Shown here piece after piece: positions 8,117-59,568 of a stretch of 64,000 bases of DNA. A program made the position numbers and the translations under genes. Under the pieces are notes generated by a model. It was not told the origin of the DNA. It was given only the letters and a program-made list of their open reading frames with translations, and searched no databases. The stretch spans positions 977 through 64,976 of the forward strand of contig JAUIIO010000004.1 of assembly GCA_030431715.1 (NCBI GenBank), read 5' to 3'. Origin of the DNA: a bacterium (GTDB lineage: Bacteria > Bdellovibrionota_C > UBA2361 > RFPC01). The number at the start of each line of letters is the position of its first letter. Position 1 is the stretch's first letter.

Positions 8117-8119
8117 GCG

Positions 8120-24356: not shown

Positions 24357-24377
24357 AGAGCTAAAGAATACTACATA

Positions 24378-25784: not shown

Positions 25785-25790
25785 CTCGTC

Positions 25791-31962: not shown

Positions 31963-33598
31963 CTTCCCATTCTCGTTTATAGTGCAGAGTAGCCGTACCG
32001 CTCTGCTTTTTTAGATTTTTTAAATAGATAGAAAGCTTTTTTGACCCTATCATTTGGATCTTCTTTAGATCTCGAGGTCTAGAATTCCAAAAAATACAGT
32101 ATCCAGGATCATCTCTTAATTTTCCAGTCACGTGGATGCGCTCTTGGCGGTAGTGGTAGTACTTAAAACTTGCATTCATAACCCCTGAGAGCACCCATCC
32201 GGGGGTAGAGACAAAGCCACCAAACAGCTTCTGTTTGGTGGTGAGCACTTCTTGTATCAGCTCTTCAGCTTTTGGATCTGCTAGCGGTTCAAGTATGGTA
32301 TTATCTTTGTCTTTTTTTATTCTCTCTACGTAGTGAGCACGGACATTTGCATATCCTAATGAAAAGGCATACATGCCTCCAAAGAATAAAGCTACAAGAA
32401 GTAACGACTTAAAGCGCGGCAAAGGAGCGATCTGCTCAGAGCTTGGGTGTGAGTTACACAATGCAGCAATCAATACTACCGGGGCGGTTGAAATAAGAAG
32501 TGTAGTGGCGTGAAAGTTATACTTTAGAAGATAGTAATCTTTGGCATCTCCTAAAAGAAAAGCGAGCGTAGTCACTATTATCGCTGGGAGTGAAAAAAAA
32601 GTAGCGAATGTAGAGGTTTTAGCAAGTTTTAGAGGAATATATCTGCGTAAGGCGATAAGAACGAGACATATACTTGATAAGCCAACTCCAATTGCCGGAA
32701 GATATAATGGAACAATCCCACCACCACGGTTAAGAAGTACTGAGAGCTTTAACCAGAGAAAAGCACATAGCAAGATGCCAAGGGCTAGGAGAAGTAGTTG
32801 AACAGTACGACCACGTGCCTCACTAGCTACTAGAAGAGTGAGAGCAAAGACGAGATCGGGAAGATTTAGTCCGTACGTCCAACGGTATAGCACAAGAGTG
32901 AGCGCAAGTAGCGTTAGCCTTTTCCACTGAACATCTTCAAGGCCGTACAGAACCGCACCTAAGAGAAGTGGTAAGATCCCAAAGAGTTGCGGATAAAACC
33001 CTTCAGCTTGTAAATAACTTAAAATGGGGAAAAGTAAGCGATCAAAAATCAGTGTATACGTTATTACAATCGCAGCAAGATATAGCAGAGTTCTTCTTGA
33101 GAGGCGTTTTGAAGCAGCCGATCCTTTAAGTACCAAGAGCGTGATGGTACTCAGATAGAGAAAGCCAAATAGGTAGTAGAGCGCTCTAAGCGCTTCAAAG
33201 TCAGAAGAGATAGTTGGAACATACTTTATCCAATAAAGGAGAGTATGAAATATTATAAACCCGTGATAGATCGCAGGATCAGGGTTAGTGAACTTATAGC
33301 TGTAGTATATATGATCAGCAACGTCCCCTCCCCCAGAGCTTACGAGACCATAAAAAGATGGATGGTACATAGTGTAAAGAAAATAACTCACTCCTACGCT
33401 TACAAGCAGAAAGAACTGAAGGGCGTTCTCTCGTAATATTTTAGTGATACTTGTCCCTACTATTGTGGCACAGAGGAGCGATATCGGTAGTGCTAGCAAC
33501 AGCGATAGCGGCAATGAAAAAAAAGACACTGTCCGTATAACGCCACTAAATGCTAGTGCAAACGTGATGCTAAGGAGAGCTAACACCAGTAAAGACAT
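31928..33598 (-). CDS. large polytopic membrane protein (possible GT-C-like transferase/polymerase); start re-set to the Met at 33596-33598
   Basis: The ORF-track call (to 33721) overlaps the upstream GT2 by 124 nt. An internal ATG at 33596-33598 forms an ATGA overlap with the GT2 stop (TGA 33598-33600), giving MSLLVLALLSITF... More than 12 TM helices plus a C-terminal soluble domain. No DE motif seen. Confidence 0.4.
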   Translation of the reverse strand: MSLLVLALLSITFALAFSGVIRTVSFFSLPLSLLLALPISLLCATIVGTSITKILRENALQFFLLVSVGVSYFLYTMYHPSFYGLVSSGGGDVADHIYYSYKFTNPDPAIYHGFIIFHTLLYWIKYVPTISSDFEALRALYYLFGFLYLSTITLLVLKGSAASKRLSRRTLLYLAAIVITYTLIFDRLLFPILSYLQAEGFYPQLFGILPLLLGAVLYGLEDVQWKRLTLLALTLVLYRWTYGLNLPDLVFALTLLVASEARGRTVQLLLLALGILLCAFLWLKLSVLLNRGGGIVPLYLPAIGVGLSSICLVLIALRRYIPLKLAKTSTFATFFSLPAIIVTTLAFLLGDAKDYYLLKYNFHATTLLISTAPVVLIAALCNSHPSSEQIAPLPRFKSLLLVALFFGGMYAFSLGYANVRAHYVERIKKDKDNTILEPLADPKAEELIQEVLTTKQKLFGGFVSTPGWVLSGVMNASFKYYHYRQERIHVTGKLRDDPGYCIFWNSRPRDLKKIQMIGSKKLSIYLKNLKKQSGTATLHYKREWEDEQAKLSYHCF

Positions 33599-34593
33599 CA
33601 GTATGCTCGCTCCGCACCTTTTGGATTTGATATTGTGAGGAGCGTTAGCCTTGATTTTATTCTCTCTACAAGACGAGAGTAGTAGAGGTATCTTAGAAAG
33701 CCGCGAGTTCCTGAGCGCCAAAAAGCGATGATGAGAGTTTTTGAGGGGATAAAACTCTTTTTATAAAGTTGCATCAGGAACAGATTTATCTCTGAAGAGA
33801 GCTCTGCAAGAGCTAATACCTTCTCCGGATCTTTCACGTGTCGGCATATCATCTGACTGTGGCGAGCCGTAATGGCTTTATACTGCTTGTCATAGTCAGA
33901 TACTGAGTCACTACCTAAAAGAGTTTGAGACGTGCGGTGTATTCGGAAAGAGGCGAGTACTTTAGGCACAAAGATCCAGTTACCCATCTCAGCTAAACGT
34001 AGCCACATATCCCAGTCTCCGGTATACCAGAGTGAGGGATCAAAAGTACCAGTATCTTGTAGTGTTGATCGCTTAAAGGTAACAGCTGGTACTGCTAAAA
34101 AATTCTGAATAAAAAGTCGTTCAAGGATGTATGCTCCATCTAAGTATTCGGTAGAATTATGAAACGGGCAGGTCCAGCATCCACGATGGACACTTTGCTC
34201 ATCGATAAACTCTGCATTGTGAACAATGACTCGAGCCTTGGGAAAGTGTTTATACGTTGTACGTAGTACCTCAATTCTATTTGGTAACCATGTGTCGTCT
34301 TGATGAAGTATACTTATAAATTCTCCGCGTGCTTCGCAGAGTGCCCTATTTGTGTTCTCTGTCCAGCTACCGGTGCGTTCTGTGCGTAAAATGCGAATAG
34401 GGAGCTTATCTACATAAGACTTGGCTAAGGCTTCGGTGTTATCAGCTGACCCATCATCAATTAAGAGCACCTCAAACTCCTGCTCCGTTTGGGCCATAAG
34501 GCTCTCTAGCGTATCTTTGAGATATCTCGCGCCGTTATACGTCGGAACAACGACCGAAAGCCACGGAGAGAAGGAACCAGTATCGGTTTGCAT
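33598..34593 (-). CDS. glycosyltransferase family 2
   Basis: SVVVPTYNGARYLKDTLESLMAQTEQEFEVLLIDDGSADNT. Confidence 0.85.
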   Translation of the reverse strand: MQTDTGSFSPWLSVVVPTYNGARYLKDTLESLMAQTEQEFEVLLIDDGSADNTEALAKSYVDKLPIRILRTERTGSWTENTNRALCEARGEFISILHQDDTWLPNRIEVLRTTYKHFPKARVIVHNAEFIDEQSVHRGCWTCPFHNSTEYLDGAYILERLFIQNFLAVPAVTFKRSTLQDTGTFDPSLWYTGDWDMWLRLAEMGNWIFVPKVLASFRIHRTSQTLLGSDSVSDYDKQYKAITARHSQMICRHVKDPEKVLALAELSSEINLFLMQLYKKSFIPSKTLIIAFWRSGTRGFLRYLYYSRLVERIKSRLTLLTISNPKGAERAY

Positions 34594-34662
34594 TTCAAGA
34601 AGTTACCAGATTAAGCGTGAAATATCTATGCTCACACAAAGAAGCATGTGAGTGCTTGAATA

Positions 34663-35961
34663 GTGCCCCTTATTGGTTTAATACAGTACCACACAATTGC
34701 TTGTTCCCTTTGTATCATGGCCGTAGCCCCCCATTCTTCAAATACATATAGAGACTCTGACCTGCCAAGGACTGAACTTGAGCAGCTCGAATTGAGTGTC
34801 GTTATTCCGTGCCTTGATGAAGCAGAAACGATCGTTGAATGTGTGACCACAGCTCTTCAGACTCTTACCTTTCATAAAATTGCAGGTGAAGTCATTGTGG
34901 CTGACAACGGGAGTACTGATGGCTCGCCGCTTCTTGCCGAAGAATGCGGCGCGCGAGTTGTTTCTGTCAAGGAGAAAGGCTATGGCAGCGCGCTCATGGG
35001 AGGAATCGATAACGCGCGAGGACGTTACATCGTCATGGGTGATGCTGACGGAAGTTATGATTTCAGAGCAATTCCTCTCTTCTTGCAGAAGCTCCGTAGC
35101 GGCTGTGACCTCGTCCAGGGTTGTCGATTACCCGTCGGAGGAGGTGTTGTAGAGTCTGGTGCTATGCCGTGGTTACATCTTTATGTGGGCAATCCATTTT
35201 TCTCTCGATTCGCTAGGCTGCTATTTCGTACTCCAATTCACGATATTAACTGTGGCCTAAGAGCATTTTCAAAAGAGCTTTATCGCCGTATCGACCAACG
35301 GTGCACAGGCATGGAATTCGCCGTTGAGATGGTGCTAAAGGCAACGCTCTTTGGCGAGTCAATAGGTGAGGTGCCTATTACCCTACATCCGGATAAGCGT
35401 ATTACAGGAAAACCTCACCTACGTACATTTCGTGACGGATGGCGCACACTCAGATTCTACCTGCTAATCAGCCCACGTTGGATTTTTCTCTACCCTGGAC
35501 TATTTCTTATGGCGGCGGGAGCACTCTTAGGAGGTCTAGCTCTCGGATCTGTACAGATAGGCAGTGCAGTTCTAGGTATCAACACCGCACTTGTCTCTAG
35601 CATGATTGTTATCGTTGGTTACCAATTAGTTATATTTGCTGCTCTCATGAAAATCTTTGCTGTTATGGAGGGACTACTCCCATACAACAAAACAACAAAG
35701 ACCTATTTCCAACTTTTTACACTTGAGAGAGGACTGCTCTGTGGTGGTGCGGCTCTTTTGCCCGGACTTACACTTATTGGTTTAGCTCTCTATCACTGGT
35801 GGAGTGCGAGCTTTGGAGATCTCACTTCTGAAGTTACGCTCTACTACGTAGTTCCCGGAGTGCTTCTCTCAATACTCGGTATACAGACGCTATTTTCAAG
35901 CTTTGCCTTTAGCATTTTGGGAATGAAGCGTAAGAAAGCCAGCCACTCCATCTCTTATTAG
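34663..35961 (+). CDS. GT2 polyprenyl-phosphate sugar synthase (GtrB/ArnC/DPM1-like) with extended C-terminal 4-TM domain
   Basis: LSVVIPCLDEAETIVECV...VADNGSTDGS...GYGSALMGGIDNARGRYIVMGDADGSYDF matches the DPM1/GtrB catalytic core. The C-terminal ~150 aa are hydrophobic with about 4 helices, possibly a fused GtrA-like segment. Confidence 0.7.
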   Translation: MPLIGLIQYHTIACSLCIMAVAPHSSNTYRDSDLPRTELEQLELSVVIPCLDEAETIVECVTTALQTLTFHKIAGEVIVADNGSTDGSPLLAEECGARVVSVKEKGYGSALMGGIDNARGRYIVMGDADGSYDFRAIPLFLQKLRSGCDLVQGCRLPVGGGVVESGAMPWLHLYVGNPFFSRFARLLFRTPIHDINCGLRAFSKELYRRIDQRCTGMEFAVEMVLKATLFGESIGEVPITLHPDKRITGKPHLRTFRDGWRTLRFYLLISPRWIFLYPGLFLMAAGALLGGLALGSVQIGSAVLGINTALVSSMIVIVGYQLVIFAALMKIFAVMEGLLPYNKTTKTYFQLFTLERGLLCGGAALLPGLTLIGLALYHWWSASFGDLTSEVTLYYVVPGVLLSILGIQTLFSSFAFSILGMKRKKASHSISY

Positions 35962-40583: not shown

Positions 40584-42170
40584 CTAGGCGGCGATTGGTT
40601 GGGCGCTTCTGATGTCATCGCTTGTGCCATCTTCGAACTTCTTAAAGTTCTCCTGAAAGAGCCCGGCAAGTTTTTTAGCAGTAGCATCAAACGCTTCCTT
40701 ATCTTTCCAGGTATTTCGTGGTTGTAAGATCTCTGCAGGCACACCGGTGCAAGATGTAGGGACATGAAGACCAAAGACAGGGTCTTCCTCCATCTTAGCT
40801 GACACAAGTTCTCCTGAGTGGATTCCATCGATGATAGCCCGTGTGTAGCTGAGTTTCATCCTCTCCCCGCTTCCGTAAGCTCCGCCTGACCAGCCGGTAT
40901 TCACAAGCCAAGCTTCTGATCCGTGTTCACGCATTTTAGCTGCCAAGAGTTCAGCGTACTTGGCCGGATGCCAGACGAGAAAGGCTGCACCGAAGCAGGC
41001 AGAAAACGTTGCCTGAGGTTCAGTTACTCCCTGCTCTGTTCCTGCCACTTTAGCGGTATAGCCAGAGATGAAGTGATACATCGCCTGTTCAGGAGTAAGC
41101 TTGCTCACAGGAGGAAGTACTCCGAAGGCGTCACAGGTAAGTAGGATGATATTCTTTGGATGAGTACCAATAGCCGGAATCTTGGCGTTATCGATATACT
41201 CCAGAGGGTAACTTACGCGCGTATTTTCGGTAAGCGAATTGTCGTCGTAGTTTACCTTCCTACTCTCTTCTTCGTAGGTCACGTTCTCAAGCAGAGAACC
41301 AAACTGAATGGCGCGGTAGATCTCAGGCTCTTTCTCCTCGGTCAGGCCTATACATTTAGCGTAGCAGCCGCCTTCTATATTAAAGACGCCGTTATCCGTC
41401 CAGCAGTGCTCATCATCTCCAATGAGCTTACGTTGTGGGTCAGCAGAGAGTGTTGTCTTGCCTGTTCCTGAAAGCCCAAAAAAGAGCGATACATCGTTGT
41501 TCTCAGGGCCTTCATTGGCTGAACAGTGCATAGAGAGAACGCCTTTTTTGGGCATAAGGTAATTCATGATGGTGAATACCCCTTTCTTCATCTCTCCGGC
41601 ATACTCTGTTCCTAGAATGACCATCTTCTTTCTTTCAAATGAGAGATCGACACTTGTTTCTGAAGTCATCTGCTCGGTATAGCGGTTTGCAGGAAAACGT
41701 CCAGCATTAAATATGACGTAGTCTGGTTCGCCAAAGTTCTTAAGCTCTTCCTCTGTTGGTCTGATAAGCATATTGTGCATAAAGAGTGCATGATATGCCC
41801 TTGAACAGACAATTCGTATTTTAAGTCTGTTTTCAGGATCCCATCCTGCAAAACCATCAAGCACATAAAGTGTCTCGCGAGTATTGAGATAATCAATAGC
41901 TCGTTCGTAGTTAATCATGAAGATTCGATCTTCAAGTCTAATATTTACATTTCCCCACCAGATATTATTTTCGCTGTCGGGATGCGATACGACGCGTTTA
42001 TCTGAAGGGCTTCTTCCAGTTTTTTTACCGGAACGAACGGCGAGTGCTCCATCGGCTGTAATCGCAGAGCCTTTCTCTTTCTTCAGGGCTTCCTCATACA
42101 ACCTTGCAGGACTTAAATTTCTAAACACATTTTCAACGTCAATTTCATACTCAGAAAGTGAAAAGTTCAT
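40584..42170 (-). CDS. pckA: phosphoenolpyruvate carboxykinase (ATP)
   Basis: [11 protein letters not shown] kinase-1a motif. Full-length colinearity with ATP-type PckA. Start re-set to the ATG at 42168-42170 ([11 protein letters not shown]...), which has AAGGAGA 8 nt upstream. The longer ORF-track start has no SD and overlaps a leader hairpin. Confidence 0.9.
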
Positions 42171-42200
42171 AAGGTATCTTCTCCTTAAATAAGCAACCAG

Positions 42201-42220
42201 GCTGCACACCATTGTGCAGC
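42201..42220 (-). promoter_or_regulatory. 8-bp perfect stem-loop (gctgcaca ccat tgtgcagc) in the pckA 5' leader
   Basis: Read directly from the sequence. Lies between the likely promoter and the SD of pckA. Confidence 0.35.
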
Positions 42221-42419
42221 TCATTTATATGCAAAGGGGTATGTCAAAACAATTTGTGAAAGTACGATTTTTAAACTTTTTTATTCTCTTACATGAATAC
42301 GCTATTCAAGTACTCCGCGTGTTCGTTTTATGCTATAAAATAGGTGCTTTTTGCGCGCACTTCTCTGGAGTTGACAGAAGAAGATTTCTGTAGATGTGGA
42401 ATGATTATTCGGTAGAGTT

Positions 42420-43892: not shown

Positions 43893-44238
43893 CTTTTTAA
43901 GTTTATACGCATAAGATTGCTGTGAGAACCTGTGAAATCTCCTTAGCGTTCAGCCTTTGCACGTTATTCGCGCGCTTTGTACTCGTCGCTTCTTTTTTAA
44001 GAAAAGCTATGTAGAAGGATTTGTCAGGCGAAGGTTTTCATGCTTGGTATACTATTTGTACATCGGGCAAACTCTGAATGTGTACGAGATCGCTATAGTG
44101 GCATAACGTGCTGATATTATGCATAAAAAGATTGACACCAATTCTAAAAACTTGAGCACATCGTGTCGATTATTCATTTAGCTGCAGGAAGTGTTTGTAT
44201 GCCTCACTAGCAAATATTTTTAAATTGGTAACGCAGCT

Positions 44239-45018
44239 ATGCCTATACAAGGCTTAAGGAGCGATAGCTCCCTGATAAGAAATGGTTTTGGAACAAATAG
44301 GGCTGAGAGTAATCTCCGTCAATCATTTACTGTGAGTTCCAATAGAGATAGCGACTCCGTTAGTGTTTCCTCAAGGCCGGGAAGAGAGTCTGGGTCTGTG
44401 CTCGATGTGAGTCTTGCTAAATCTAATGCTGAGATAGCCTCCAATGCAGCAGAGAGCATTATTTCGCTCCGCGCCGATCAACTTGAGCTGGCAGAGCAAG
44501 CTGCAAATTCTTCAAATCCAACAACGAGATCTGATCTTCAGAGTGAAATTGAAACACTTCAGGCTGAGATTGAGCGTATAGCAAGCGAAGCGGTCGATCA
44601 AAATGGCAATAGCGTTCTTACCGGATCGGGTACAACTTTATCTAATGGTGAGGTCGTACAGCTTGCTGATATTTCGGCGATCCGCGACGATCCGAACGTT
44701 GATGTCAGCTCTGAAAGTGGAGCTGACGATGCTGTTGAGTCACTTACGGCCACTTTGCAAAGTAGTAGAGTGTACCGCGAATCTTCATCGAGTTCTCTAG
44801 GAAGAGCCGAGAGCGTTCTCGCAACTGAGCTTGCCACAGAGCGAACGACGCGGAGTGAGGATAACGATGCTATTGCAGAGATTAGTGAAGCAGAGCAGGT
44901 CGCAAAAGATATCTCTGCATCTCTTTTACAGGAATTTGGGAACACTGAGGATCCAGCTACATCACTTACCTCCACTCTTCTCTCCGGTGAATTAAACGCC
45001 GATGTTCTGCTAGACTAA
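44239..45018 (+). CDS. short divergent flagellin-family protein (D0-D1 only, 259 aa), orphan
   Basis: ELAEQAANSSNPTTRSDLQSEIETLQAEIERIASEAVDQNGNSVLTGSGT aligns to the flagellin D1 block (B. subtilis Hag ELVVQAGNTGTQDKATDLQSIQDEISALTDEIDGISNRTEFNGKKLLDGT). The C-terminal region AVESLTATLQSSRV...RAESVL...SEDNDAIAEISEAEQ resembles the flagellin C-terminal helix (ESRIRDVDMAKEMSEF...). No other flagellar genes nearby. Confidence 0.55.
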   Translation: MPIQGLRSDSSLIRNGFGTNRAESNLRQSFTVSSNRDSDSVSVSSRPGRESGSVLDVSLAKSNAEIASNAAESIISLRADQLELAEQAANSSNPTTRSDLQSEIETLQAEIERIASEAVDQNGNSVLTGSGTTLSNGEVVQLADISAIRDDPNVDVSSESGADDAVESLTATLQSSRVYRESSSSSLGRAESVLATELATERTTRSEDNDAIAEISEAEQVAKDISASLLQEFGNTEDPATSLTSTLLSGELNADVLLD

Positions 45019-45626
45019 TCTATTTCCGTTTGCTTGTGGAGCACGAGCAAAATTCTCTTTGCCTCCACCATATGCATCAAGTGGTTTATCTTCTCTTCAA
45101 AAGTTGATTTTTCAGATGGGTATTTGCCAACCTTGTTAAGCCGTTCAGAAACAATCGAAGGATAAAAAGAAAAATCTGCTGAGCTATTCTGATCAAGCTC
45201 TGACCAGAGATTTTCTGTTACCATGACCCGGTTCTTATCATGAGAGGATATATCAGATTTTAAAAGAAGCGCGCTTGTTTGCTCAAACATCTGGCGCAAA
45301 TGCCACATAGTCGTACCAAGTGTTTTGTTTAGCTGATCGCGACGTATTGGATTTGCAATTGAATCTTCAGATGAGAAGAGTCCAAGTGACTCAAGTTCAA
45401 TAAGATCTCTTTGGTAAGCATCCTGCGCTGCTTGAAGTTTCTCAGGAGAAGCAGATTTGACGTCGCGTAGGAGTGTAAGGATTCCATAAGAGCATGCTGA
45501 AAGAGCAACTATTGCTGTTCCGTTATTAAGAAACATTCTTCTACTTAGAGAAACTTTCTCAGCATGGGAGTGGTCCTCCGCTACATTTGCGAAGATTTCG
45601 TGACTTGGAGAGTTTCTTTCAGGCAT
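45015..45626 (-). CDS. hypothetical protein with Tat-like signal (SRRMFLNNGTAIVALSAC)
   Basis: ORF convergent on the flagellin-like gene with a 4-nt overlap. Twin-arginine-like motif after a ~25-aa N-terminal extension. Confidence 0.4.
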   Translation of the reverse strand: MPERNSPSHEIFANVAEDHSHAEKVSLSRRMFLNNGTAIVALSACSYGILTLLRDVKSASPEKLQAAQDAYQRDLIELESLGLFSSEDSIANPIRRDQLNKTLGTTMWHLRQMFEQTSALLLKSDISSHDKNRVMVTENLWSELDQNSSADFSFYPSIVSERLNKVGKYPSEKSTFEEKINHLMHMVEAKRILLVLHKQTEID

Positions 45627-45747: not shown

Positions 45748-47544
45748 ATGCCAAATACCGAATTATTCAAACCAGAATCGTATATCGCTGCCCCGGGAGT
45801 AGACCCGGCCGAAGCACATTTTCAAGAGGCACTACCTGCGCAGAGGCGTAATGGAGACTCACATATATATACGACCCCTCCGCAGTATGAGTCACTCCTT
45901 GATCCGAAGTCTCAGATCGTACGCGACTATCGAATGGCTTCGTCTTATTCTTACAATCCGAGAGCTATCAAAGATCTACGGGTAGATGCTGGCACACTTC
46001 TTTCGTACATCCGCTCTATGGGTTCAAACGATCCGAGCAGTGAATCCTTTATGGAGATAGCTCGCGGACTTGCTTTTAGACGTACTCCACACGACTACAA
46101 AAAAGGTCCGGCCATTGATGTTTACACCGTTCCCGAGCTGAAACAAAAGGTTATTGCTGAGTATGCAAGCAACCTAGCTTACATGCGCCTGATGACTATG
46201 CCTTCTGTACTGGAAGGAAGGCTTGAGATGTTACGGCGTGGGTCGCCCGGACGCTACCCGAGACGAAATCAGTACTTTGATAATCACATTGCTAATAAAA
46301 CTGCCATAACGTGGAAAAACATAGGCTGGGGTATACCAGAGCGCGATCTTGAGCATAAGGTGGATGACGAGAGTACCACATTTGCTCGTTCTCAGGGAAT
46401 GTGGTCACACATATACTCTGCTTCAGATAGCCAAATGGTCGCATCCCCGGTATGTGGACCTTCACACCCCGATCTCTTAAGCCCACTTGCAATGGCGGAT
46501 CTTGCTCTTTGTGGATCGTTCTCTTTTGTTCCTTGCGACGCAATCTATTCTAGTGGGAAAGGCCCAAATGGCGCAGGGCTCAAGGCACAAATTGAATTTG
46601 TAAAAGCGACTCAAAATATTCTTAAGAACCATCCGCTTATTCTCAATCACCCTTATGGTAATCACGTGCTTTCAGATGGCAAAACGGTGAGTAGGCACTT
46701 GTACGATGAAGCGATTAAACGAATCGGTGTGACGTTAAAACCACATCCTACGCAAGATTCTGTTGAAAGAGCGAAGCGACTCTATAATGAATGCGGTGTT
46801 ACTCTCTTTCGTGTATTTGATCCACGAGATACTCAGATGCTTCCTCGTACTATTGAGGCTGTATCAGAGCTTGAAGCAAGGACCGTTGAAGAAGTTAGAG
46901 AAGTTCAGCCTGACCAAATTATACCGATAGCTAGCCAAGTAACTGGCGTAAATAGCGCGATGAGGTGTCGTGACGCTGGAGCAAGAGTTATTGTGCTTAA
47001 CATCGGTGAAGGTGGCTTCTGTAGTACTTCGTCTGGCACTGGCATGATTCCATCAAACCTGCTCACCTTTTATCGAATTCAACGAGAGCTCCATGAAGAT
47101 ACGGGCATAATCGTAGATGGAGGTGTTGGAAACACATGGGTGTTAGCGCTAGCTCTAGGTGCAACTGCTACCATGAAGCACGCGTCTCTTATAGGTGGAA
47201 CGGTACAGCAAGTTCCTATTTTCACAGCAATTGACGAAGGAGGTTCTTACTACAAGCTCGCTTCCGGTGAAGCCGCAAAACGTACGAAGTTCCTCAGCAA
47301 CAGTCAGACAGACCTCGTTGGCGACCCACGAAATGTTGAGGGAGTTGATGGAGCTCAGGAGTTTTTAGTAGATGGAATGAGCATGAGTATTGGTAAGCGA
47401 CTAGACCAAAACTTCTATACACCAGCGGCCAAGCAACTTGTGTTCTGCGGCACAAGCAACCTTGCCGCTTACATGGACTGGTTAGATCCAGTCATTTGGG
47501 AACCGACTTCTGAAGCAATGATTATGGCAGCGCCACATATATAG
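45748..47544 (+). CDS. IMP dehydrogenase / GMP reductase-family TIM-barrel protein with ~330-aa uncharacterised N-terminal region
   Basis: The C-terminal 270 aa align to the IMPDH catalytic half. VIVLNIGEGGFCSTSSGTGM matches the IGPGSICTT active-site Cys loop. IVDGGVGNTWVLALALGATATMKHASLIGG matches [27 protein letters not shown]. No CBS pair seen. Confidence 0.6.
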   Translation: MPNTELFKPESYIAAPGVDPAEAHFQEALPAQRRNGDSHIYTTPPQYESLLDPKSQIVRDYRMASSYSYNPRAIKDLRVDAGTLLSYIRSMGSNDPSSESFMEIARGLAFRRTPHDYKKGPAIDVYTVPELKQKVIAEYASNLAYMRLMTMPSVLEGRLEMLRRGSPGRYPRRNQYFDNHIANKTAITWKNIGWGIPERDLEHKVDDESTTFARSQGMWSHIYSASDSQMVASPVCGPSHPDLLSPLAMADLALCGSFSFVPCDAIYSSGKGPNGAGLKAQIEFVKATQNILKNHPLILNHPYGNHVLSDGKTVSRHLYDEAIKRIGVTLKPHPTQDSVERAKRLYNECGVTLFRVFDPRDTQMLPRTIEAVSELEARTVEEVREVQPDQIIPIASQVTGVNSAMRCRDAGARVIVLNIGEGGFCSTSSGTGMIPSNLLTFYRIQRELHEDTGIIVDGGVGNTWVLALALGATATMKHASLIGGTVQQVPIFTAIDEGGSYYKLASGEAAKRTKFLSNSQTDLVGDPRNVEGVDGAQEFLVDGMSMSIGKRLDQNFYTPAAKQLVFCGTSNLAAYMDWLDPVIWEPTSEAMIMAAPHI

Positions 47545-48985: not shown

Positions 48986-50266
48986 TTACTTTGCGCCGAG
49001 GTCGAGTGTCGCAAACTGAGGGCAATAGTCCGGAGCGAAACGCTGGGCCCTGTTAATTCGCATAGTTACGCCCTGAAATTCCCAGACACGATCTTTCTCA
49101 GGTGTGACTTCAAAGACTCGGCCTTTGGTGTCTTCAGAGATGAGAGTGTTTCCATTTGGTAATCGAGTGGCAGCTCCTGCCACAGAGCTACTAAACTTTT
49201 TACCGACGTCATAGACCCAAGTAAGCTTCTTATCCGGCGGGGCAATCTCAAGAATACGAGACTCTTTCATTGAGCGACCGTTATCAAAGAGGAGGATATC
49301 ACCTGCCCCGTTAAGGCCCTTTGGTATCATGTACGGGTCATGGCCTCCGCTTATGCCGCCTTTGTAATCACCGCGATAGCTCCACACAACTTTCTTCGTG
49401 TCCCTATCGATAATCATCGCTGTCCACCAGTTACGAGCGAAGACTAAAATATTACCCGGCTTAAAACGGGTATCTCCAGCATCATACCATTTGTTTTCTG
49501 GGAGTGGTGACGCTGTGTTCATATGGGTCCAATCAAGTCGTCTCTTACCATCGATCTTACGCGATCGTAATTCGCTGCACGGTCGTGGTCCGCACGAATT
49601 AAGATCAAGATGCTCGTGAGCTGCCCACGACCATACGATCTCTTTTTCAGGCGAGATCTCAACTACAACATCTGAGCGGATATTGGTCCCACGAATTTTG
49701 GGGTCTTTGATCTTTTCTTTCAGAATGGCCGGAACATCTGTTAAGTACAGCGTAAGAATATTGCCATTTGGAAGTTTTCGGATGTCGTGATGAACGGGCT
49801 CTGGGAGTTCGTATTCCCAGACGACGTCCCCTTCCCAACTATACTCGCGAATAATGTTACGCATGCTTGCCCACGGTTCATGATCAATTCCCCACTTTGA
49901 ACCGTGAATGACTAACAGGTTGCCGTTCGGCAAGAGTCGCGCACGATCGGCGTCAACTGGCCATTTGTGTACGGTCTCTCCTTTCATATTTAAGAGCAGT
50001 ACTTCTGCCGTTCCACTTGTAGGATAGATGGTAAAGCCCGGAAATGCCTTGTCGGTGTAAATGGTAAGCCCCTTTCCGGTGTTCCCCGAGGAGGCGTCAG
50101 AGGCGCTCTTTTTTTTAGCTTTTGACGTTACTTCATTTTGTTTTAGGAGGGCTTTCTTAGAGGACGTGGGTTGCTGTACCTCTCGTAAAACAAGGAAGAG
50201 CATCGCACCAATTGCCAGCGCAATTATAAGTAGTCCTTCTGTGATGGTTCTGCTACGTGACTTCAT
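48986..50266 (-). CDS. secreted/anchored beta-propeller protein, arylsulfotransferase (ASST)-like, paralog A
   Basis: N-terminal TM/signal. Repeated LLPNGNLLV, LPNGNILTL, RLPNGNTLIS and FDNGR blades characteristic of ASST-type propellers. About 50% identical to the divergent neighbour. Confidence 0.5.
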   Translation of the reverse strand: MKSRSRTITEGLLIIALAIGAMLFLVLREVQQPTSSKKALLKQNEVTSKAKKKSASDASSGNTGKGLTIYTDKAFPGFTIYPTSGTAEVLLLNMKGETVHKWPVDADRARLLPNGNLLVIHGSKWGIDHEPWASMRNIIREYSWEGDVVWEYELPEPVHHDIRKLPNGNILTLYLTDVPAILKEKIKDPKIRGTNIRSDVVVEISPEKEIVWSWAAHEHLDLNSCGPRPCSELRSRKIDGKRRLDWTHMNTASPLPENKWYDAGDTRFKPGNILVFARNWWTAMIIDRDTKKVVWSYRGDYKGGISGGHDPYMIPKGLNGAGDILLFDNGRSMKESRILEIAPPDKKLTWVYDVGKKFSSSVAGAATRLPNGNTLISEDTKGRVFEVTPEKDRVWEFQGVTMRINRAQRFAPDYCPQFATLDLGAK

Positions 50267-50446: not shown

Positions 50447-51703
50447 ATGAACCGTACCCTTAAACTTGCTCTTGAGCTTCTCACATGCCTTTTATTGGCC
50501 GCTGCCCTCCTTTACTTTGTTCCCTCTCAAAGTATAAAGAGCGCCCCTGAAATACCTGCGGCGCATAAAGTGCCTCAGAAGACAGAAGAGAGAGCGAAGA
50601 CTCAGCCCAAAGAAGCCACTAAGGGTCATCTCGTAAGCTCTGATAAGAGAGCGTGGCCCGGTTTTACACTTATGCCTGAATCAGGCTCAGCCACGGTAAA
50701 GCTGGTGAATATGTCAGGAGACATAGTTCACAAGTGGAATTTTGATGCCGCCAGAGCCAGATTGCTTCCGAACTGTAATCTGTTGGTAGTACACGGTACG
50801 AAATGGGGATGGGGCACTGAGTACTGGAGCGAACAGAGAAAGTACGTCAGGGAATTTGATTGGGACGGGCAGGTTGTTTGGGAGTATACAGTACCAGGGC
50901 CCGCGCACCACGATGTTCACAGGCTTAAGAACGGTAATACACTCTTACAGTACCGCTCAATCGTACCTGAAGAGTTTCGGCGTACAATTAAGGACGAAAA
51001 AAAGCGAAATGCCCGGATTCGAACAGATATCATACGTGAAGTTACGCCTGAGGGTGAAATCGAATGGGAATGGGCTTCGCATGAGCATCTTGATTTAAAC
51101 TCATGTGGTGCTCACCCCTGTCATAAGACCTCAAAGAGTATTGCGAGTGGGAAGCGTACCTTTGATTGGACTCATAACAATACGGTAAACCCCTTACCGC
51201 AAAATAAGTGGTTTACAAGTGGTGATACTCGATTTAAGCCGGGCAATTTGCTGCTCATGCCTAGAAGCTGGTCTCAAAGCCTGTTGGTAAGTAAAGATAG
51301 TGGTGCAGTTGTGTGGGACTATCACGGTGACTTTGAAGGAGGGCTCTCAGGTGGTCATGAGGTGCATATGATTCCTGAAGGATTTCCGGGAGCCGGTAAT
51401 ATCCTTGTCTTTGATAACGGGAGAACAAGGCAGCGCTCAGCTGTACTCGAAATAAATCCTACTACAAAAGAGGTCGTATGGTCTTACGAGAATGGGAAAT
51501 CGTTCTTTAGTCAGGCCGCAGGTTCTGTGCAGCGGTTCCCGGGTGGAAACACGCTAATCTCTGAGGATGTCCCCGGGAGGGTGTTTGAAGTTACTCCTGA
51601 TAAAGAGGTTGTCTGGAGCTATCAGGCGCCTATGAGGACAGCTAGAGCACATCGATATGCCCCTGATCATTGCGCTAAGCTATCGGAATTAGACCTTTTT
51701 TAG
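50447..51703 (+). CDS. secreted/anchored beta-propeller protein, ASST-like, paralog B
   Basis: Same architecture and motifs as paralog A (LLPNCNLLVVHGTKWG, LKNGNTLLQ, RFPGGNTLISEDVPGRVFEVTPDKEVVWSY). Divergently transcribed from it. Confidence 0.5.
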   Translation: MNRTLKLALELLTCLLLAAALLYFVPSQSIKSAPEIPAAHKVPQKTEERAKTQPKEATKGHLVSSDKRAWPGFTLMPESGSATVKLVNMSGDIVHKWNFDAARARLLPNCNLLVVHGTKWGWGTEYWSEQRKYVREFDWDGQVVWEYTVPGPAHHDVHRLKNGNTLLQYRSIVPEEFRRTIKDEKKRNARIRTDIIREVTPEGEIEWEWASHEHLDLNSCGAHPCHKTSKSIASGKRTFDWTHNNTVNPLPQNKWFTSGDTRFKPGNLLLMPRSWSQSLLVSKDSGAVVWDYHGDFEGGLSGGHEVHMIPEGFPGAGNILVFDNGRTRQRSAVLEINPTTKEVVWSYENGKSFFSQAAGSVQRFPGGNTLISEDVPGRVFEVTPDKEVVWSYQAPMRTARAHRYAPDHCAKLSELDLF

Positions 51704-52176: not shown

Positions 52177-52764
52177 ATGTCACAGAGTGTAGACCCTCAC
52201 GACAAGCAGGTGTTTACCACTGGTGATGTAGCGAAGTTTACCCACACTGCCCCGCGAACAGTTAGTAAATGGGTAGATAGCGGCTTACTTAGCGGCTACC
52301 GCGTTCCGGGCTCACAAGATAGACGCATACCACGCGATCCCCTACTCGATTTTTTAATTGAGCATAATATCCCGCTCGGTCGTCTTCAGAAGAAAGTCCT
52401 CTTTCTTTCAACTGACGAAGCGCTCATAGATTCCCTTACTGAGCGTTGTAGGCCTTTAAAGCATCCTCCTGTTACGAATATAAAGCAGAGTTCCTTCGGT
52501 GCGGGCATGGCCTTTCAAACGTTAAAGCCAGATTGTTTCGTTATTGATCTGGGAACGGTGTCCGTTTCTGTGGCTGAAACTATTCTTGTAGCGTTCGGGA
52601 ATTCTCAGAATCCCCCCTACTCAATTGCTCTTCTTCCAGATGGCATTACCGCAGAAGAGCTTGATGATACTTTGCAAGTAGATCAAATATTTGAACGCCC
52701 CTTTGATCCAGAGCTACTGAGCGAAACAATCCTTTCGCAAGTTGTCGTCAGCTCTGATTTTTAG
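52177..52764 (+). CDS. excisionase/AlpA-type HTH fused to an atypical receiver (REC-like) domain
   Basis: N-terminus TTGDVAKFTHTAPRTVSKWVDSGLLSGYRVPGSQDRRIPRDPLLDFL matches the excisionase-family HTH_17 pattern. The C-terminal 120 aa show REC topology (VLFLSTDE..., PDCFVIDLGT with an Asp at the phospho-acceptor position, SIALLPDG, and ERPF in place of the conserved KPF). Confidence 0.55.
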   Translation: MSQSVDPHDKQVFTTGDVAKFTHTAPRTVSKWVDSGLLSGYRVPGSQDRRIPRDPLLDFLIEHNIPLGRLQKKVLFLSTDEALIDSLTERCRPLKHPPVTNIKQSSFGAGMAFQTLKPDCFVIDLGTVSVSVAETILVAFGNSQNPPYSIALLPDGITAEELDDTLQVDQIFERPFDPELLSETILSQVVVSSDF

Positions 52765-54944
52765 AGCTTGACCTTATTTTTCAGATTTGTGCTGGTTGTG
52801 CTGCTACGTTTCTTTTTCTTCGCATCCTTCTCAGCGTTTTCTTCTTCACTCACAGGTGCCTTAAAAGCATTCACAACGCCTCTACGGAAGCGAGCTCCAA
52901 GGCCTTCTGAGGCGCCAAGTTTAAATGGGCCCGAATCTTCTTTCGCCTGCTGACTTGCCTGTGGGGCGCTCTCTTGTGCAGGTTTTGCGAGAGAGAAGCC
53001 AGTTGATGAGGTCGATCCACTTGAAGCTGAGTGCTGCGAAGTTGTTTGAGCATGTTGTGGCTGTTGTTGAGGAGGAGGTGGTGGTGGCGCTTTTCTTAGC
53101 GGCTTCTTGTCTGGGGCAAAGCGAGGAGAGGTTTCCTGCTGCTCCTGATTTAAGATTCTCTCATCTACCCAGCTTGCAAGCCCAATACCGTCTTTTTCAA
53201 ATTTCTCAAGGTGAGTGATAAACTCTCTGCCCTCCCAAGAATCGGGAAGGTCGGCGTTAAACCAAAAGGCACGACCTTTTACAATTCGGCCATCGCCAGT
53301 ATCAAACCAAGCGAGACCTTTCTCCGCTGACATTTCGTGTTTGAGTTCGTCAGCGCTTACCAGATCTTCTTCATCCTCAGAGATATTAACACTCTGCGAT
53401 TCTCGGTTCATTGTGGAACCTGCCGTGGTCATGCCGGCTAATCCCGGAGTAGAGATCCCGGCAGCTACAGATTTCTTGGTGGTAGCGACTTTACCAAACC
53501 ACTTGGCCATATCTTCAGCAGTACGGTTATCACCGACTCGCATCATGACTTTTAAGTTTACGTTCGCCATTACCCGTTCATAGAATGCTTCACTCAAGCC
53601 AACGGACTGATCGGTAAGACCACCAGTTGATTGCGCTCCAAAGATAAGAGCAAAACGACCTTTTCGCGCGAGTTCAAAAAGGTTCGCCCACGTTGGGCCA
53701 AAGGTTGATGCTCCCTCATCGATAACGACAGGGTGTGGATCTTCAAGATGAAGGTGACGTGAAGAAGTTATCTCACCAATTGATACTTCGAGATCTTCGC
53801 GGAAGAGCTTCACCATTCGAGCCGCACTCTCAGCTTCCTCAAGACGAGGCAGCATAAAGTAAATAATCTTTCCACGCATAATGGCATCTGTAAGAACAAG
53901 ATCGGTGTATTCCGTACAGAAAACCGACCCCATTTCACTCCCCGAAATAGCATGTAGCTCAGAAGAGATACCACGCAGGTTGTCAGTAATCCTAGCGGTA
54001 TCAAGTGATCCTTTAGCCGTACGGTAACTTGAAGCGAGGTGGCCAAGCTCAACCATCGCTTTCTTAGCTCCTATTTTATGGAGCATATTTCGTAGCTGAG
54101 GGTATGCGAGCTTAAAAGCCGAGAGCGCAACAGCTATATCCTGTATAGTCCATGTAACTCCAAAGCTCTCCATGGCACGGACAAGGCGATAGATAGAATC
54201 AGCAGCGAGACGATCGTAGTGCTTGGTTGTGCTCTGGTCGGAAGTAGGCGGAAGACCTGCACGAAGAACCTTCCGAGCTTTTACATCAGCTCTCTGGTTT
54301 GTCATTACAAAGTTGTAAGCATGAAGCGGATCAAAGGGGTCTACAACAACGAGGTCTTCTATACGACCAGTTATAAGCGCCATAAGAATAATATGCGCAA
54401 GTGTAGCCGAATCACGCTTGGCATCGATAAAGGTACAACCACTGGCTCGTCCACGAGCCATCTGTTGAAACATAAGAGATTCAAGCCAGAGAGTTTTCCC
54501 CACCCCGGTCTTTGCAAATACGCACGCGTGGCTACAGAGATCCTCATCGCCAATCCACAGAGGAGCACCGGTATCTAGCTCAAAGCCTACTAGATAACGG
54601 TCTATCATGTTTTTGCCGCGGGCCTGCGCTTCCTGAAGTGCTTCAGTAAAGCAGTCTCTCTCAGGAGGAGATCCGAGTACTTTCTTTCCGCCTCGAAAAG
54701 CGCTCTCTGAAGAACGTTCGCGTTCTAGCCAAAACTGCTCGGCTAAGATCTTACCTTGTTGAAGAAAGGAGAATGCTGGCAGGCCAGCCAGAGCGGCAAG
54801 AAGCGTTGGATCCAGTCCGGCAGCTAGCGGTGAGGCCGCAACCCCGAGCGCACCGAGAGAGTAGAGAGAGCTTGAAAGAAGCGCCTTTTTTCGCTCTTCC
54901 TCCCTCATAAACTCAAAATTTGAAGACTTATATTGCCGTGCCAT
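52761..54944 (-). CDS. traD: type IV coupling protein (TraD/TrwB/VirD4 family) with C-terminal P/Q/S-rich disordered tail
   Basis: Walker A HACVFAKTGVGKT. VIDEGASTFGP...ARKGRFALIFGAQSTGGLTD aligns to TrwB LFIDELASL...GRKAGLRVVAGLQSTSQLDD. N-terminal TM helices. C-terminal PPPPPQQQPQHAQTTSQHSASSGSTSS tail. Confidence 0.85.
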   Translation of the reverse strand: MARQYKSSNFEFMREEERKKALLSSSLYSLGALGVAASPLAAGLDPTLLAALAGLPAFSFLQQGKILAEQFWLERERSSESAFRGGKKVLGSPPERDCFTEALQEAQARGKNMIDRYLVGFELDTGAPLWIGDEDLCSHACVFAKTGVGKTLWLESLMFQQMARGRASGCTFIDAKRDSATLAHIILMALITGRIEDLVVVDPFDPLHAYNFVMTNQRADVKARKVLRAGLPPTSDQSTTKHYDRLAADSIYRLVRAMESFGVTWTIQDIAVALSAFKLAYPQLRNMLHKIGAKKAMVELGHLASSYRTAKGSLDTARITDNLRGISSELHAISGSEMGSVFCTEYTDLVLTDAIMRGKIIYFMLPRLEEAESAARMVKLFREDLEVSIGEITSSRHLHLEDPHPVVIDEGASTFGPTWANLFELARKGRFALIFGAQSTGGLTDQSVGLSEAFYERVMANVNLKVMMRVGDNRTAEDMAKWFGKVATTKKSVAAGISTPGLAGMTTAGSTMNRESQSVNISEDEEDLVSADELKHEMSAEKGLAWFDTGDGRIVKGRAFWFNADLPDSWEGREFITHLEKFEKDGIGLASWVDERILNQEQQETSPRFAPDKKPLRKAPPPPPPQQQPQHAQTTSQHSASSGSTSSTGFSLAKPAQESAPQASQQAKEDSGPFKLGASEGLGARFRRGVVNAFKAPVSEEENAEKDAKKKKRSSTTSTNLKNKVKL

Positions 54945-54961
54945 ACGTTCCTTTGTCTGCC

Positions 54962-56962
54962 TTAACGAAATGCCATCTGAATATCATCTTGGAGATCATC
55001 AGTGATACCGTGCAGTAAATTATTAAAATGTTCTTGAGTTTCAGCCATATTAGCAAATGAAACAGAAGAAAATTCGTCTGTCCATCCACGCCCCAGTCTT
55101 TCAGCAATCCGAGAGCCTCGAAGTGGAACAATACTGCTCTGACCGGCAAGAGCGAGTTCATTTTGAGCGATGCCACTCGTTGGATTATGGAGCACTGCGA
55201 AGATAACAGAACTTTCTGGTACCGTGTAATCCCCTACTCTCCGTGCTAACCAACCATAGGTGTAAAGTACTATTCGAAACGCTGACCACTGTCTGAGATC
55301 TCTTTCGTCAAGTTGATGTAGCTCTGCGAGAGTCTGTCTCTCGTCTTTTGTGAGCGGAGCGAAAATCTTTTCGTATTCTGGAACACCACTTTTGATAGAG
55401 TCTGACATGGACTCGGCTTCAAGAGCGAGCTTTTGTTGCTCGGTGTACACATATTGGGCGAGCTCGGTGAGGCGTTTAAAATATTCTGCCGGTATGACTT
55501 TGCGCGCCACCTGCATAAGAGCCGTTACCGGCAAAAGGAGAAGGCCACCCGGAGTAATGTGGATCTGGTCTGGAAACTGAGAATCGAGTTCATGAACGGC
55601 AACGGTAAAAGCCTGTTTCCATAATTCGTGGCATTCATAGGTTAGAGCAAAAAGTTCGAGATCGTGAGTGGTATAAAGAATTTTAGCAGGTTGTTCGAGT
55701 AAAAGTTCAACCCATTGTCTGAGAGCTCGACTCTCAAGCGAGAGATCTGTCGCGAAACGTACAGGACCAAATACACTACTTCTTGAGGCATATATGAGGG
55801 CACGACGAATCGTTTTTCTTTGCTCAAAATCATATTCTCTTGCAAACGATGGAATAGAATGGAGGATGGCTCTTGCAGAAAGCTGTGGATAATTTGATTT
55901 TTGTATCCACCTTCCCCCTTCATCAGCATAACTTAAAACCTTGCCAGCCTGATAGGCCAGCAGCGTTGTAAAGATCATCTGCGGCGAGAGTGAGGCGATC
56001 GATTTCCGGAAAGATTCAGGAAGGCTCTGATGCATTGCCCGGTGCATTATATCCATATAGCTAGAAATGCTAAATGGTTCGGGGAGCTTCTCATGAGCAA
56101 GAATTCCCGCTGGTCCTTCAGCGCCAGAGCGATAACGATTATAGAGATCATGTGCTCGGGTAAGTAGTAAGTGAGACACGTCGGCAAGGGAGGCGTCTCC
56201 TGTAGGTGGCACCGTTGTCATTGACGGCGGGGCGGCAAATGCAGGTATATGATTCGCAGCAAGAAGAGCAGCGCAGAGTGTTACGTTCGTTTCATTCGCA
56301 GCCCCAGTCTTTTCAAGAAACTGCCCAAGTGAGGAACTCATGACTTCATCTCTTCCAACGAGTGCAGGACAGGCAAGTCCTACGACTTGAAAGTCCGGGG
56401 CTCCAAGAGAGTTTAGGTTTCTAAGACCAGCTTGGATTCCACTAAAATATGAACGACCGTTGCCTGTTTGCCCCAGAACGTCATCAGTGTTCTCATAAGG
56501 TTGATAGCGGCGCCTAGCGAGTAAGATGGCCAGAAGTGAAGTAAAGAGCCAGAGTCTTCCGGCGGCAAGTACGAGAAATGAAACTCGTAAAAACATAAAT
56601 TTGAAAGAGCCGAGCAGCCAGCTAAAGCCACCTCGACCGAGTGCCGCGAGATAAATTGATTCTGAAAAGTTATTGAAGGCGCGGACCTCTCCTATGGTAC
56701 CGTGTGCCTCAAGCCACGCACGGTAATCACGTTGCGTGACAACGAGCTCATGTAAGACAGGATTTCGCGATCTGATAAGTTGATTTTCAACTGCTGAGAA
56801 ATTTATTGAGGCTGGGCGAAAGGGAAGAATTGCCAGTGAGAGAATAAAGAGGACATACCCGGCTAAGAACACCAAGAACACAGGCCATAAAAACCTCGTC
56901 CAAAAACGTCGCTGGAGCCTAGCCAGCTCCTGAGTATGTGTACGTGATATTGAATCCGACAC
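54962..56962 (-). CDS. hypothetical membrane protein (666 aa) of the conjugation module
   Basis: Lies 18 nt upstream of the coupling-protein gene on the same strand. Two N-terminal TM regions. No Walker or relaxase motif confidently recognised. A LLTRAHDLY (H-D) segment is noted but unverified. Confidence 0.45.
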   Translation of the reverse strand: MSDSISRTHTQELARLQRRFWTRFLWPVFLVFLAGYVLFILSLAILPFRPASINFSAVENQLIRSRNPVLHELVVTQRDYRAWLEAHGTIGEVRAFNNFSESIYLAALGRGGFSWLLGSFKFMFLRVSFLVLAAGRLWLFTSLLAILLARRRYQPYENTDDVLGQTGNGRSYFSGIQAGLRNLNSLGAPDFQVVGLACPALVGRDEVMSSSLGQFLEKTGAANETNVTLCAALLAANHIPAFAAPPSMTTVPPTGDASLADVSHLLLTRAHDLYNRYRSGAEGPAGILAHEKLPEPFSISSYMDIMHRAMHQSLPESFRKSIASLSPQMIFTTLLAYQAGKVLSYADEGGRWIQKSNYPQLSARAILHSIPSFAREYDFEQRKTIRRALIYASRSSVFGPVRFATDLSLESRALRQWVELLLEQPAKILYTTHDLELFALTYECHELWKQAFTVAVHELDSQFPDQIHITPGGLLLLPVTALMQVARKVIPAEYFKRLTELAQYVYTEQQKLALEAESMSDSIKSGVPEYEKIFAPLTKDERQTLAELHQLDERDLRQWSAFRIVLYTYGWLARRVGDYTVPESSVIFAVLHNPTSGIAQNELALAGQSSIVPLRGSRIAERLGRGWTDEFSSVSFANMAETQEHFNNLLHGITDDLQDDIQMAFR

Positions 56963-57227
56963 GTTTTAAAACCTCATAAACAAAGGGATACTGTAGCATG
57001 TTATAGGCGTTTTCAACATAAGAGTAACGCAAGGAGTGCCGGCAATTTGTAAGTCTTTGTCCCCTGCCCAGTCCCCAGACGAAATTCATGCCGTATTTTG
57101 TGAAAATAATTCGCAGAAGAACGCTTTTCTAAGTACCTAAAAACACTAAATTTCGAGAATCTAGACGTTTTTCTGTGCGTGTAGGGTAACCATTTATTAA
57201 CCGCTACCCATAACAGTAGTGAAAGAC

Positions 57228-57246
57228 ATTTCGGAACGCCCGAAAT
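57228..57246. promoter_or_regulatory. inverted repeat atttcgg aacgc ccgaaat in the divergent promoter region of the T4SS operon
   Basis: Read directly. Lies 20-40 nt upstream of the first T4SS-operon gene, inside a 302-nt AT-rich gap between divergent conjugation operons. Confidence 0.35.
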
Positions 57247-57264
57247 TTAACTTGTAGAGGTTTT

Positions 57265-57636: not shown

Positions 57637-57667
57637 TGAATGCGGAAAAGTACTATAGGAGTACAGG

Positions 57668-58066: not shown

Positions 58067-58103
58067 GTTTTGTTAGCGGTTTTATCTTTAAAGGGTTTAG
58101 AAA

Positions 58104-58742: not shown

Positions 58743-58773
58743 GGGGATTTTAGGAGATTTGAGGAGCAGTACT

Positions 58774-59562: not shown

Positions 59563-59568
59563 GTAACG

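Follow-up and report, generated by a model that had tools for sequence, protein, structure and literature searches.

A flagellin-derived protein without the N-terminal assembly segment in a Bdellovibrionota-type bacterium

Introduction

Flagellin polymerisation needs both terminal segments of the protein. A gene at positions 44239-45018 (+) of a 64-kb stretch of bacterial DNA (64,000 nucleotides of contig JAUIIO010000004.1, assembly GCA_030431715.1; the whole stretch is called the window below) encodes a 259-amino-acid (aa) protein that resembles flagellin over most of its length, lacks the usual N-terminal segment and has no flagellar gene beside it. The locus raises the question of whether such a protein is a flagellin at all and, if it descends from one, what it might do. 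A first-pass annotation had called it an orphan flagellin-family protein and had also considered a decayed flagellin. In this study, we compared the protein with sequence, profile and structure collections, modelled its fold, and read the genomic context of nine different family members.

Results

Homology and family

In the list of open reading frames (ORFs), the coding sequence (CDS) starts with ATG and encodes 259 aa and a stop, without frameshift or internal stop, exactly where the first-pass annotation had placed it. The product, described there as Ser/Glu-rich rather than Ala/Gln-rich, contains S+T 25%, E 9.7%, A 10.8% and Q 4.2%. In a word-indexed search of 5.8 billion proteins, the only match was the 259-aa protein itself. 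We then used exhaustive phmmer against 1.84 billion cluster representatives. The results showed 41 other proteins at E ≤ 1e-3 and 14 at ≤ 1e-10, almost all of them 243-285 aa long; the best homologue was 42% identical (E 1.2e-26). One of the matched proteins, P0039 (370 aa), is an obvious canonical flagellin. After P0039 and two fragments were dropped, 39 sequences made up the family alignment (A2), and the family contains at least 40 clusters at 50% identity. A k-mer-limited search with the family profile was swamped by true flagellins and recovered one other family member.

The 39-sequence profile was next compared with the PDB. It matched 45 distinct sequences at E ≤ 0.01, and all of them were flagellins or flagellin homologues. 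The best match was 2zbi, described as 'bacterial cell-surface flagellin' (E 9.3e-11), and the match to 9hpz (E 3.9e-10) covered profile positions 41-243. Among NCBIfam models, the matches that recurred across the 39 members were all to flagellin models, one of them in 13 members and the lateral flagellin model LafA in 10, whereas non-flagellin models were matched weakly and by one member each (E 0.0015-0.007). When 42 sequences were scanned singly with Pfam, Flagellin_N was reached at E ≤ 0.1 by 28 of them, including one true flagellin, and Flagellin_C was matched only by the true flagellin P0039. A DUF6381 match of the 259-aa protein (E 0.094) was set aside as helical noise.

Predicted structure

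We modelled the protein with AlphaFold2 on the 39-sequence alignment, which gave a mean predicted local distance difference test score (pLDDT) of 79.9 and a predicted template modelling score of 0.69. The results showed a confident D1 core made of helices at residues 51-89 and 94-117, a beta-hairpin at 130-142 and a further helix at 159-207 (Table 1). The block ELAEQAAN...LTGSGT (residues 83-132), which had been read as the N-terminal part of flagellin D1, aligned with the ND1a and ND1b helices. A Foldseek search of the PDB returned flagellins as its top 38 matches, the best being 5z7q, a D1 fragment of Bacillus cereus flagellin, over 154 columns (E 3.8e-4, target-normalised TM score 0.70, root-mean-square deviation 2.3 Å).

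The N-terminal part of the model was different. Residues 1-49, which stand in place of the N-terminal D0 helix (ND0) and of the LSSGLRIN...DDAAG junction, were Ser/Thr-rich, poorly conserved and predicted to be disordered, with no secondary structure predicted and pLDDT <50 for residues 10-49. Column entropy was 1.7-2.3 bits in D1 versus 3.1-3.4 bits in residues 11-50; the first ~10 residues were mildly conserved (M-x-[IF]-x-[ILV]), and so was the extreme C-terminus. The first-pass annotation had suggested an AlphaFold model to look at the D0 helices; in ours the D1 core was confident, and no N-terminal D0 helix was predicted. A second member, P0011, modelled in the same way, showed the same architecture with a disordered N-terminus, indicating that the loss of this helix is a trait of the family.

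The fold also bears on whether the family could be a hook-filament junction protein of the FlgL (HAP3) type, a flagellin paralog whose helical core is of the D1 type. In public records the members are labelled 'hypothetical protein', and P0013 was auto-named 'flagellin-like hook-associated protein FlgL' by the Joint Genome Institute. The D1 fold and partial matches to Flagellin_N are common to FlgL and this family, and FlgL structures did appear in our fold search. They appeared there only at E ≥ 0.1, however, against 4e-4 for flagellins, and the PDB profile matches at E ≤ 0.01 were flagellins throughout. FlgL models were matched by 0 of the 39 members, unlike flagellin models, and no FlgK-like gene was found in the window or in the nine related loci. 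Finally, the N-terminal D0 helix of FlgL is absent from this family. A junction protein is thus very unlikely.

Comparison with short canonical flagellins

We refer to the short canonical flagellins encoded beside the relatives as A-type and to the family of the 259-aa protein as B-type, and compared the two in one alignment (A6). The A-type proteins carry KLASGKRINxAxDDAAGLAIA, RIRDxDVAEE and AQANQ...VLxLLK. The B-type proteins keep the ELAxQAxN...ExxxLxxEIxRIAxxxxxNGxNVLxG block, the CD1 helix and a terminal LDxxxVxxLL, whereas the SGxRIN...DDAAG segment is missing; the absence of the canonical LSSGLRIN motif from the 259-aa protein, reported in the first-pass annotation, was thereby borne out.

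Alignment of the two profiles with hhalign gave a probability of 99.5% (E 4e-22). B-type columns 58-267 aligned with A-type columns 65-271, a span that begins with ND1a and runs through the final residue, and the first ~57 B-type columns were left unaligned. The C-terminal helix had been noted earlier as resembling the flagellin C-terminus. The B-type profile aligned up to the last A-type column, with B-type LDxxxVxxLL, which reads ...ELNADVLLD in the 259-aa protein, against A-type xxxVLxLLK; the helices modelled there were of lower confidence (pLDDT 52-84). A neighbour-joining tree grouped all B-type proteins into a single clade that excluded the A-type and other flagellins. Within it, the 259-aa protein shared a subclade with P0002, P0003 and P0005-P0010, and its branch was of ordinary length. 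The residues M1, A70 and Q81 are retained in this protein, as are the near-invariant R78, A88, E110, I111 and A165.

Two results count against flagellin descent. The 259-aa protein itself matched neither PF00669 nor PF00700 at E ≤ 1 and no NCBIfam flagellin model. Of ten close relatives, seven matched Flagellin_N at 22.0-30.2 bits over model positions ~56-137, where the gathering score of this model (PF00669) is 26.6 bits, and three had no match. Taken alone, the missing matches would suit a coiled-coil or low-complexity protein that is unrelated to flagellin and resembles it by chance. We give this explanation next to no probability. A true flagellin, P0039, was among the direct matches in the search of 1.8 billion sequences (E 5e-4), and phmmer, profile, Foldseek and hhalign results, together with the Pfam and NCBIfam scans of the members, all converged on flagellin, so that similarity from coiled-coil composition, the case in which the first-pass annotation would have been wrong, was rejected.

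By sequence comparison, the family lies at the edge of what the curated models detect and yet is clearly flagellin-derived. The earlier assignment to the flagellin family accordingly held by family profile, by hhalign, and by AlphaFold2 with Foldseek, and failed by Pfam on the protein itself. Since both Pfam models, the ND0 helix and the junction all fail, we do not file the protein as a canonical flagellin; it is a variant within the flagellin superfamily, flagellin-like in fold and descent, and very probably an intact flagellin-derived paralog. The B-type family is descended from the short flagellins of an uncultured lineage, which are ~270 aa long and consist of D0-D1 only.

Genomic context in relatives

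The nine loci come from uncultured metagenome-assembled genomes labelled at NCBI as Bdellovibrionales bacterium, Oligoflexia bacterium or just 'bacterium'. In all nine, the B-type gene lay directly downstream of an A-type gene, with anything from a 4-nt overlap to a 61-nt gap between them. The A-type partners were 259-275 aa long, and eight of the nine matched both Flagellin_N and Flagellin_C. The exception was at locus L087, where the A-type gene (9177-10004) is degenerate in its N-terminal half, with no Flagellin_N match and Flagellin_C at E 0.005; at L088, which is near-identical, it is split into two ORFs (9177-9719 and 9729-10004). In this freshwater-type lineage the B-type gene is intact and is present on 24 or more contigs. 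'Orphan', the term used in the first-pass annotation, therefore describes the local context of the window gene and not its family, which is a conserved clade encoded beside a canonical flagellin in every relative read.

A TerB-domain gene preceded the pair in 9 of 9 loci, with TraB/GumN and SIS/CBS genes farther upstream. No other flagellar structural gene was found within ±10 kb of the pair in the nine relatives; an FlgM-like gene lay near the pair in L083. No fliS, fliW or csrA gene was seen beside the B-type gene in any locus. This last result bears on a possible role as a cytoplasmic regulator or decoy, in which the unexported protein would bind FliS or FliW/CsrA-type regulators through its D1/CD0 surface (CD0 being the C-terminal D0 equivalent) and so tune the synthesis or export of the major flagellin encoded in its own operon. 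Such a role would agree with a protein that has kept D1 and the C-terminal segment and lost the polymerisation-critical N-terminus, and with translational coupling to the A-type flagellin in the relatives. We consider it unlikely, because the expected partner genes are not neighbours, the solo copy in the window has no partner made in cis, and the extreme N-terminus is flagellin-like (M-x-[IF]-x) and disordered as export signals are.

Four conserved genes of ~145, ~85, ~275 and ~260 aa followed the pair in most relatives (Table 1). Their N-termini look like those of prepilins, e.g. RG|ATLLE, with weak support from N_methyl (E 0.01-0.25) and from PDB pilin N-termini (E 0.15-0.27). The sizes and order of these genes recall GspH/I/J/K or minor type IV pilins.

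These neighbours raise the alternative that the flagellin fold has been repurposed for a non-flagellar structural or surface role, as a fibre subunit or adaptor that is possibly tied to the pilin-like genes, or as an effector secreted in a predatory way of life. The idea gains from the persistence of the B-type gene beside a degenerate A-type gene in one lineage and, in the window, without any flagellar neighbour, and from the top PDB profile match being a 'bacterial cell-surface flagellin'. It is nevertheless unlikely. The synteny of the relatives extends to the unrelated housekeeping genes HslVU, HisRS and RsmB, so that adjacency carries little functional weight, and genes on the opposite strand stand between the pair and the pilin-like genes in L085, L089 and L092; for both reasons we did not take the pilin adjacency as functional linkage. 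The pilin calls themselves rest on weak N_methyl matches, and the 259-aa protein has neither a Sec nor a prepilin signal.

Local context in the window

The window copy was the single solo case among ten contexts; the family HMM found no second copy in the 64 kb. It may be a rearranged ortholog or an extra paralog. A gap of 346 nt separates the CDS from a divergent upstream gene of 272 aa with a weak transglutaminase-core match in Pfam. On the other side, a convergent 203-aa ORF (45015-45626, -) shares the last 4 nt of the CDS and carries a twin-arginine-type motif, SRRMFL, at its N-terminus, in agreement with the convergent overlap with a Tat-signal gene described earlier. The Shine-Dalgarno sequence had been called weak, and we saw no AGGAGG-like sequence or other purine run of this kind ahead of the ATG. 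An antisense 125-aa ORF (44598-44975, -) inside the CDS was rejected as a by-product of composition.

The accessory and conjugative surroundings reported in the first-pass annotation were confirmed by Pfam scans of the window ORFs. The neighbours include PEPCK, an HAD hydrolase, an IMPDH-like protein, Ham1 and two arylsulfotransferase-like genes, and F-type transfer genes (a TraD/TraG-like coupling protein, TraE, TraK, TraB/TrbI) begin at ~52 kb, ~7 kb downstream of the CDS. We rejected the idea that the gene is cargo of a mobile element, as tblastn found no match in 72,556 plasmids. The arylsulfotransferase-like beta-propeller genes form a divergent pair (48986-50266, -; 50447-51703, +) 4-6 kb downstream of the CDS, and are 45-53% identical to an arylsulfotransferase gene of L083 (15435-16679), which lies 5 kb past the flagellin pair on the downstream side. 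No other synteny remained between the window and the relatives.

A solo copy in such a setting could be a decaying relic, left without function after loss or rearrangement of a flagellin locus. Its isolation among the ten contexts, its weak Shine-Dalgarno sequence and its lack of any Pfam match would be expected of a relic. The gene is, however, of full length within the family range and free of frameshifts and internal stops, and its D1 model is confident. The position in the tree, the ordinary branch and the retention of all invariant and near-invariant residues indicate that it is an intact member and not a relic. Decay, which the first-pass annotation had listed among its possibilities, is therefore disfavoured and in our view highly improbable.

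Regulatory signals

The sigma-28 (FliA) consensus is TAAAG-N14-GCCGATAA, and a motif of this kind precedes the window gene (Table 1). We scanned nine upstream regions with a strict pattern, in which CTAAAG is matched at 4/6 positions or more and GCCGATAA at 6/8 or more, the spacer length is 14-15 and the CGA core is intact. The pattern occurred in 4 of the 9 regions, versus 0.49 expected from the background rate in the same sequences; the four were those of the window gene and of the A-type genes in L085, L089 and L090. Related GCCGACTT and ACCGACTT boxes were present in L083 and L087. Because the pattern was tuned after the data had been seen, this support for sigma-28 is only suggestive.

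Downstream of the sigma-28-like box, the A-type leaders of L083 (9070-9115) and L087 (9052-9097) share the motif CCGACTTCCCCT-N6-8-GCAG-N4-GAATGGTGA, which may be a conserved element in the 5' untranslated region of the flagellin mRNA. Past the stop codon of the window gene, a terminator-like hairpin falls within the 3'-terminal part of the convergent ORF. The terminator consensus scan gave one site versus 1.8 expected in shuffled sequences, so the count is not significant and the position is suggestive.

Other features of the window

The conjugative-element-like block spans 52177-60750 and probably continues to the end of the window; no integrase or tRNA was seen with it. No tRNA and no Rfam family were found in the window as a whole. 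A polysaccharide biosynthesis cluster (23646-35961) contains six glycosyltransferases (GT2, GT4), a Polysacc_synt_3 flippase and methyltransferases, together with two large ORFs without Pfam matches (30427-33721). The IMPDH-like protein is a 598-aa product (45748-47544, +) in which residues ~371-535 match the IMPDH/GMP-reductase barrel at E 7e-8; no family match was found for its long N-terminal part. Adjoining DUF4956 and VTC-domain genes (7421-8983), a polyphosphate-related domain pair, lie next to a hybrid histidine kinase/response regulator (9172-10755).

ArgRS (13038-15134) had a best non-self match of 43% identity among 5.8 billion proteins, with mixed labels. PEPCK (40584-42224) was at best 72-73% identical to proteins from unrelated phyla, and these matches gave no synteny. 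The source genome was not among the 185,579 species representatives searched. By their sequence divergence, ArgRS and PEPCK point to a deeply divergent, poorly sampled lineage.

Table 1. Features discussed in the text, in window positions except where a related locus is named.
Feature	Position	Strand	Basis or remark
CDS, 259 aa + stop, B-type flagellin-derived paralog	44239..45018	+	ORF list, phmmer, PDB profile matches, position in B-type clade
N-terminal segment, residues 1-49	44239..44385	+	pLDDT <50 for residues 10-49, entropy, hhalign, alignment A6
Flagellin D1 core, residues 50-207	44386..44859	+	pLDDT mostly 93-99, Foldseek, profile alignments
C-terminal helices, end of CD1 and CD0 equivalent, residues 208-259	44860..45015	+	hhalign, alignment A6; pLDDT 52-84
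Sigma-28 (FliA)-like motif CTAAAA-N15-GTCGATTA	44144..44172	+	pattern scan; 66 nt before ATG
Terminator-like hairpin with T-rich tail	45029..45051	+	11 nt past stop, inside 3' end of convergent ORF
Four prepilin-like genes	L082 9761-12141; L083 10796-13113; L087 10815-13087; L085 15434-17697		
HTH_17 protein	52177-52764		
TraD/TraG-type coupling protein	52761-54944	-	
666-aa protein	54962-56962	-	
TraE, TraK, TraB/TrbI homologues	58104-60750		

Discussion

What might a flagellin derivative without ND0 do? We consider there to be about an even chance that the 259-aa protein belongs to the late flagellar regulon as an accessory flagellin derivative, which the flagellar system exports and which is not a standard filament subunit. 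Late flagellar genes use sigma-28, the export signal of flagellin is its disordered N-terminal region, and FliS binds the C-terminal segment of flagellin. From this known biology of flagellin and its termini we infer regulon membership, export and the accessory role. As a late product of the flagellar regulon, of the sigma-28 class, the protein would leave the cell through the flagellar type III apparatus, which is assumed to be present, using its disordered N-terminus, possibly with a flagellin chaperone bound to the retained C-terminus during export. Because ND0 has been lost, a B-type protein probably does not build the normal inner tube on its own. It may instead be a minor or positional component of the filament that depends on the major flagellin, or a non-polymerising flagellin that is released in the manner of FlaC. 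The window copy, separated from its flagellin partner, would appear to have its own promoter.

Several observations weigh against an accessory role in the flagellar regulon. No flagellar gene was found in the 64-kb window by Pfam scans of its ORFs. The sigma-28-like motif ahead of the window gene matches at 5/6 and 6/8 positions a pattern that was defined post hoc, and the loose form TAAA-N14-17-GCCGATAA with up to two mismatches gave 10 sites versus 11.5 expected in the window, which is no enrichment. In the L087 lineage, the degenerate A-type gene beside an intact B-type gene hints that the role of B-type proteins is not tied to a normal filament.

A further reading is a flagellin fold that has left the flagellum, either as an independent secreted effector or adhesin in a predatory or epibiotic way of life, or as a non-flagellar surface building block. 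The first-pass annotation had likewise named a secreted flagellin-like effector or decoy and a subunit of a non-flagellar filament among its possibilities. We regard such a departure as doubtful, though not negligible. If it were true, the family would persist where its A-type partner is degenerating (L087) or absent from the locus (the window).

The accessory-flagellin reading has a precedent in FlaC of Campylobacter jejuni and other Campylobacterales, a flagellin-like protein that leaves the cell through the flagellar type III system and is dispensable for motility (PMC4863622). FlaC is described as very close in sequence to other flagellins, and its D1 regions are strikingly like those of TLR5-activating flagellins (PMC4863622). 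It is small, has no D2/D3 and is encoded apart from the filament flagellins, which makes it the best parallel for a flagellin derivative that stands alone and is not part of the filament. FlaC differs in being host-associated, and the B-type proteins have lost the N-terminal segment. The likeness is a functional analogy only, in which the present protein would be secreted as well.

Close known proteins in sequence and fold are the short D0-D1 flagellins of the Bdellovibrionota type, namely the A-type proteins, P0054 ('flagellin FliC [Bdellovibrionales bacterium]') and FliC1-6, the six flagellins that make up the filament of Bdellovibrio bacteriovorus (PMC2791853). They share with the B-type proteins a length of ~250-285 aa without D2/D3, homology from ND1a to the C-terminal residue, the D1 fold, and the tandem arrangement with a flagellin gene. 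The B-type proteins differ in having a disordered, Ser/Thr-rich N-terminus in place of ND0 and the LSSGLRIN...DDAAG segment, in forming a separate clade, and in lacking a Flagellin_C match, with Flagellin_N weak or absent.

Another comparison is with the 'cell-surface flagellin' homologues of Sphingomonas sp. A1 (2zbi, 3k8v, 3k8w), which were the best or near-best PDB profile matches over the ND1 region (E 9e-11 to 9e-10). These chains are 292-351 aa long and have an inserted domain and canonical termini; their likeness to B-type proteins is confined to D1.

For the window itself the result is modest, one solo family copy in a deeply divergent genome. For the family it reaches further. Several members have no Pfam or NCBIfam match and are labelled 'hypothetical protein', indicating that flagellin-derived genes in uncultured Bdellovibrionota-like bacteria are under-counted. 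The terminal D0 segments of flagellin are regarded as indispensable for filament assembly. A conserved clade that has D1 and the C-terminus, lacks the N-terminal assembly segment and is coupled to a normal flagellin is therefore a natural experiment on flagellin without ND0, which might be a positional subunit, a secreted factor or a regulator.

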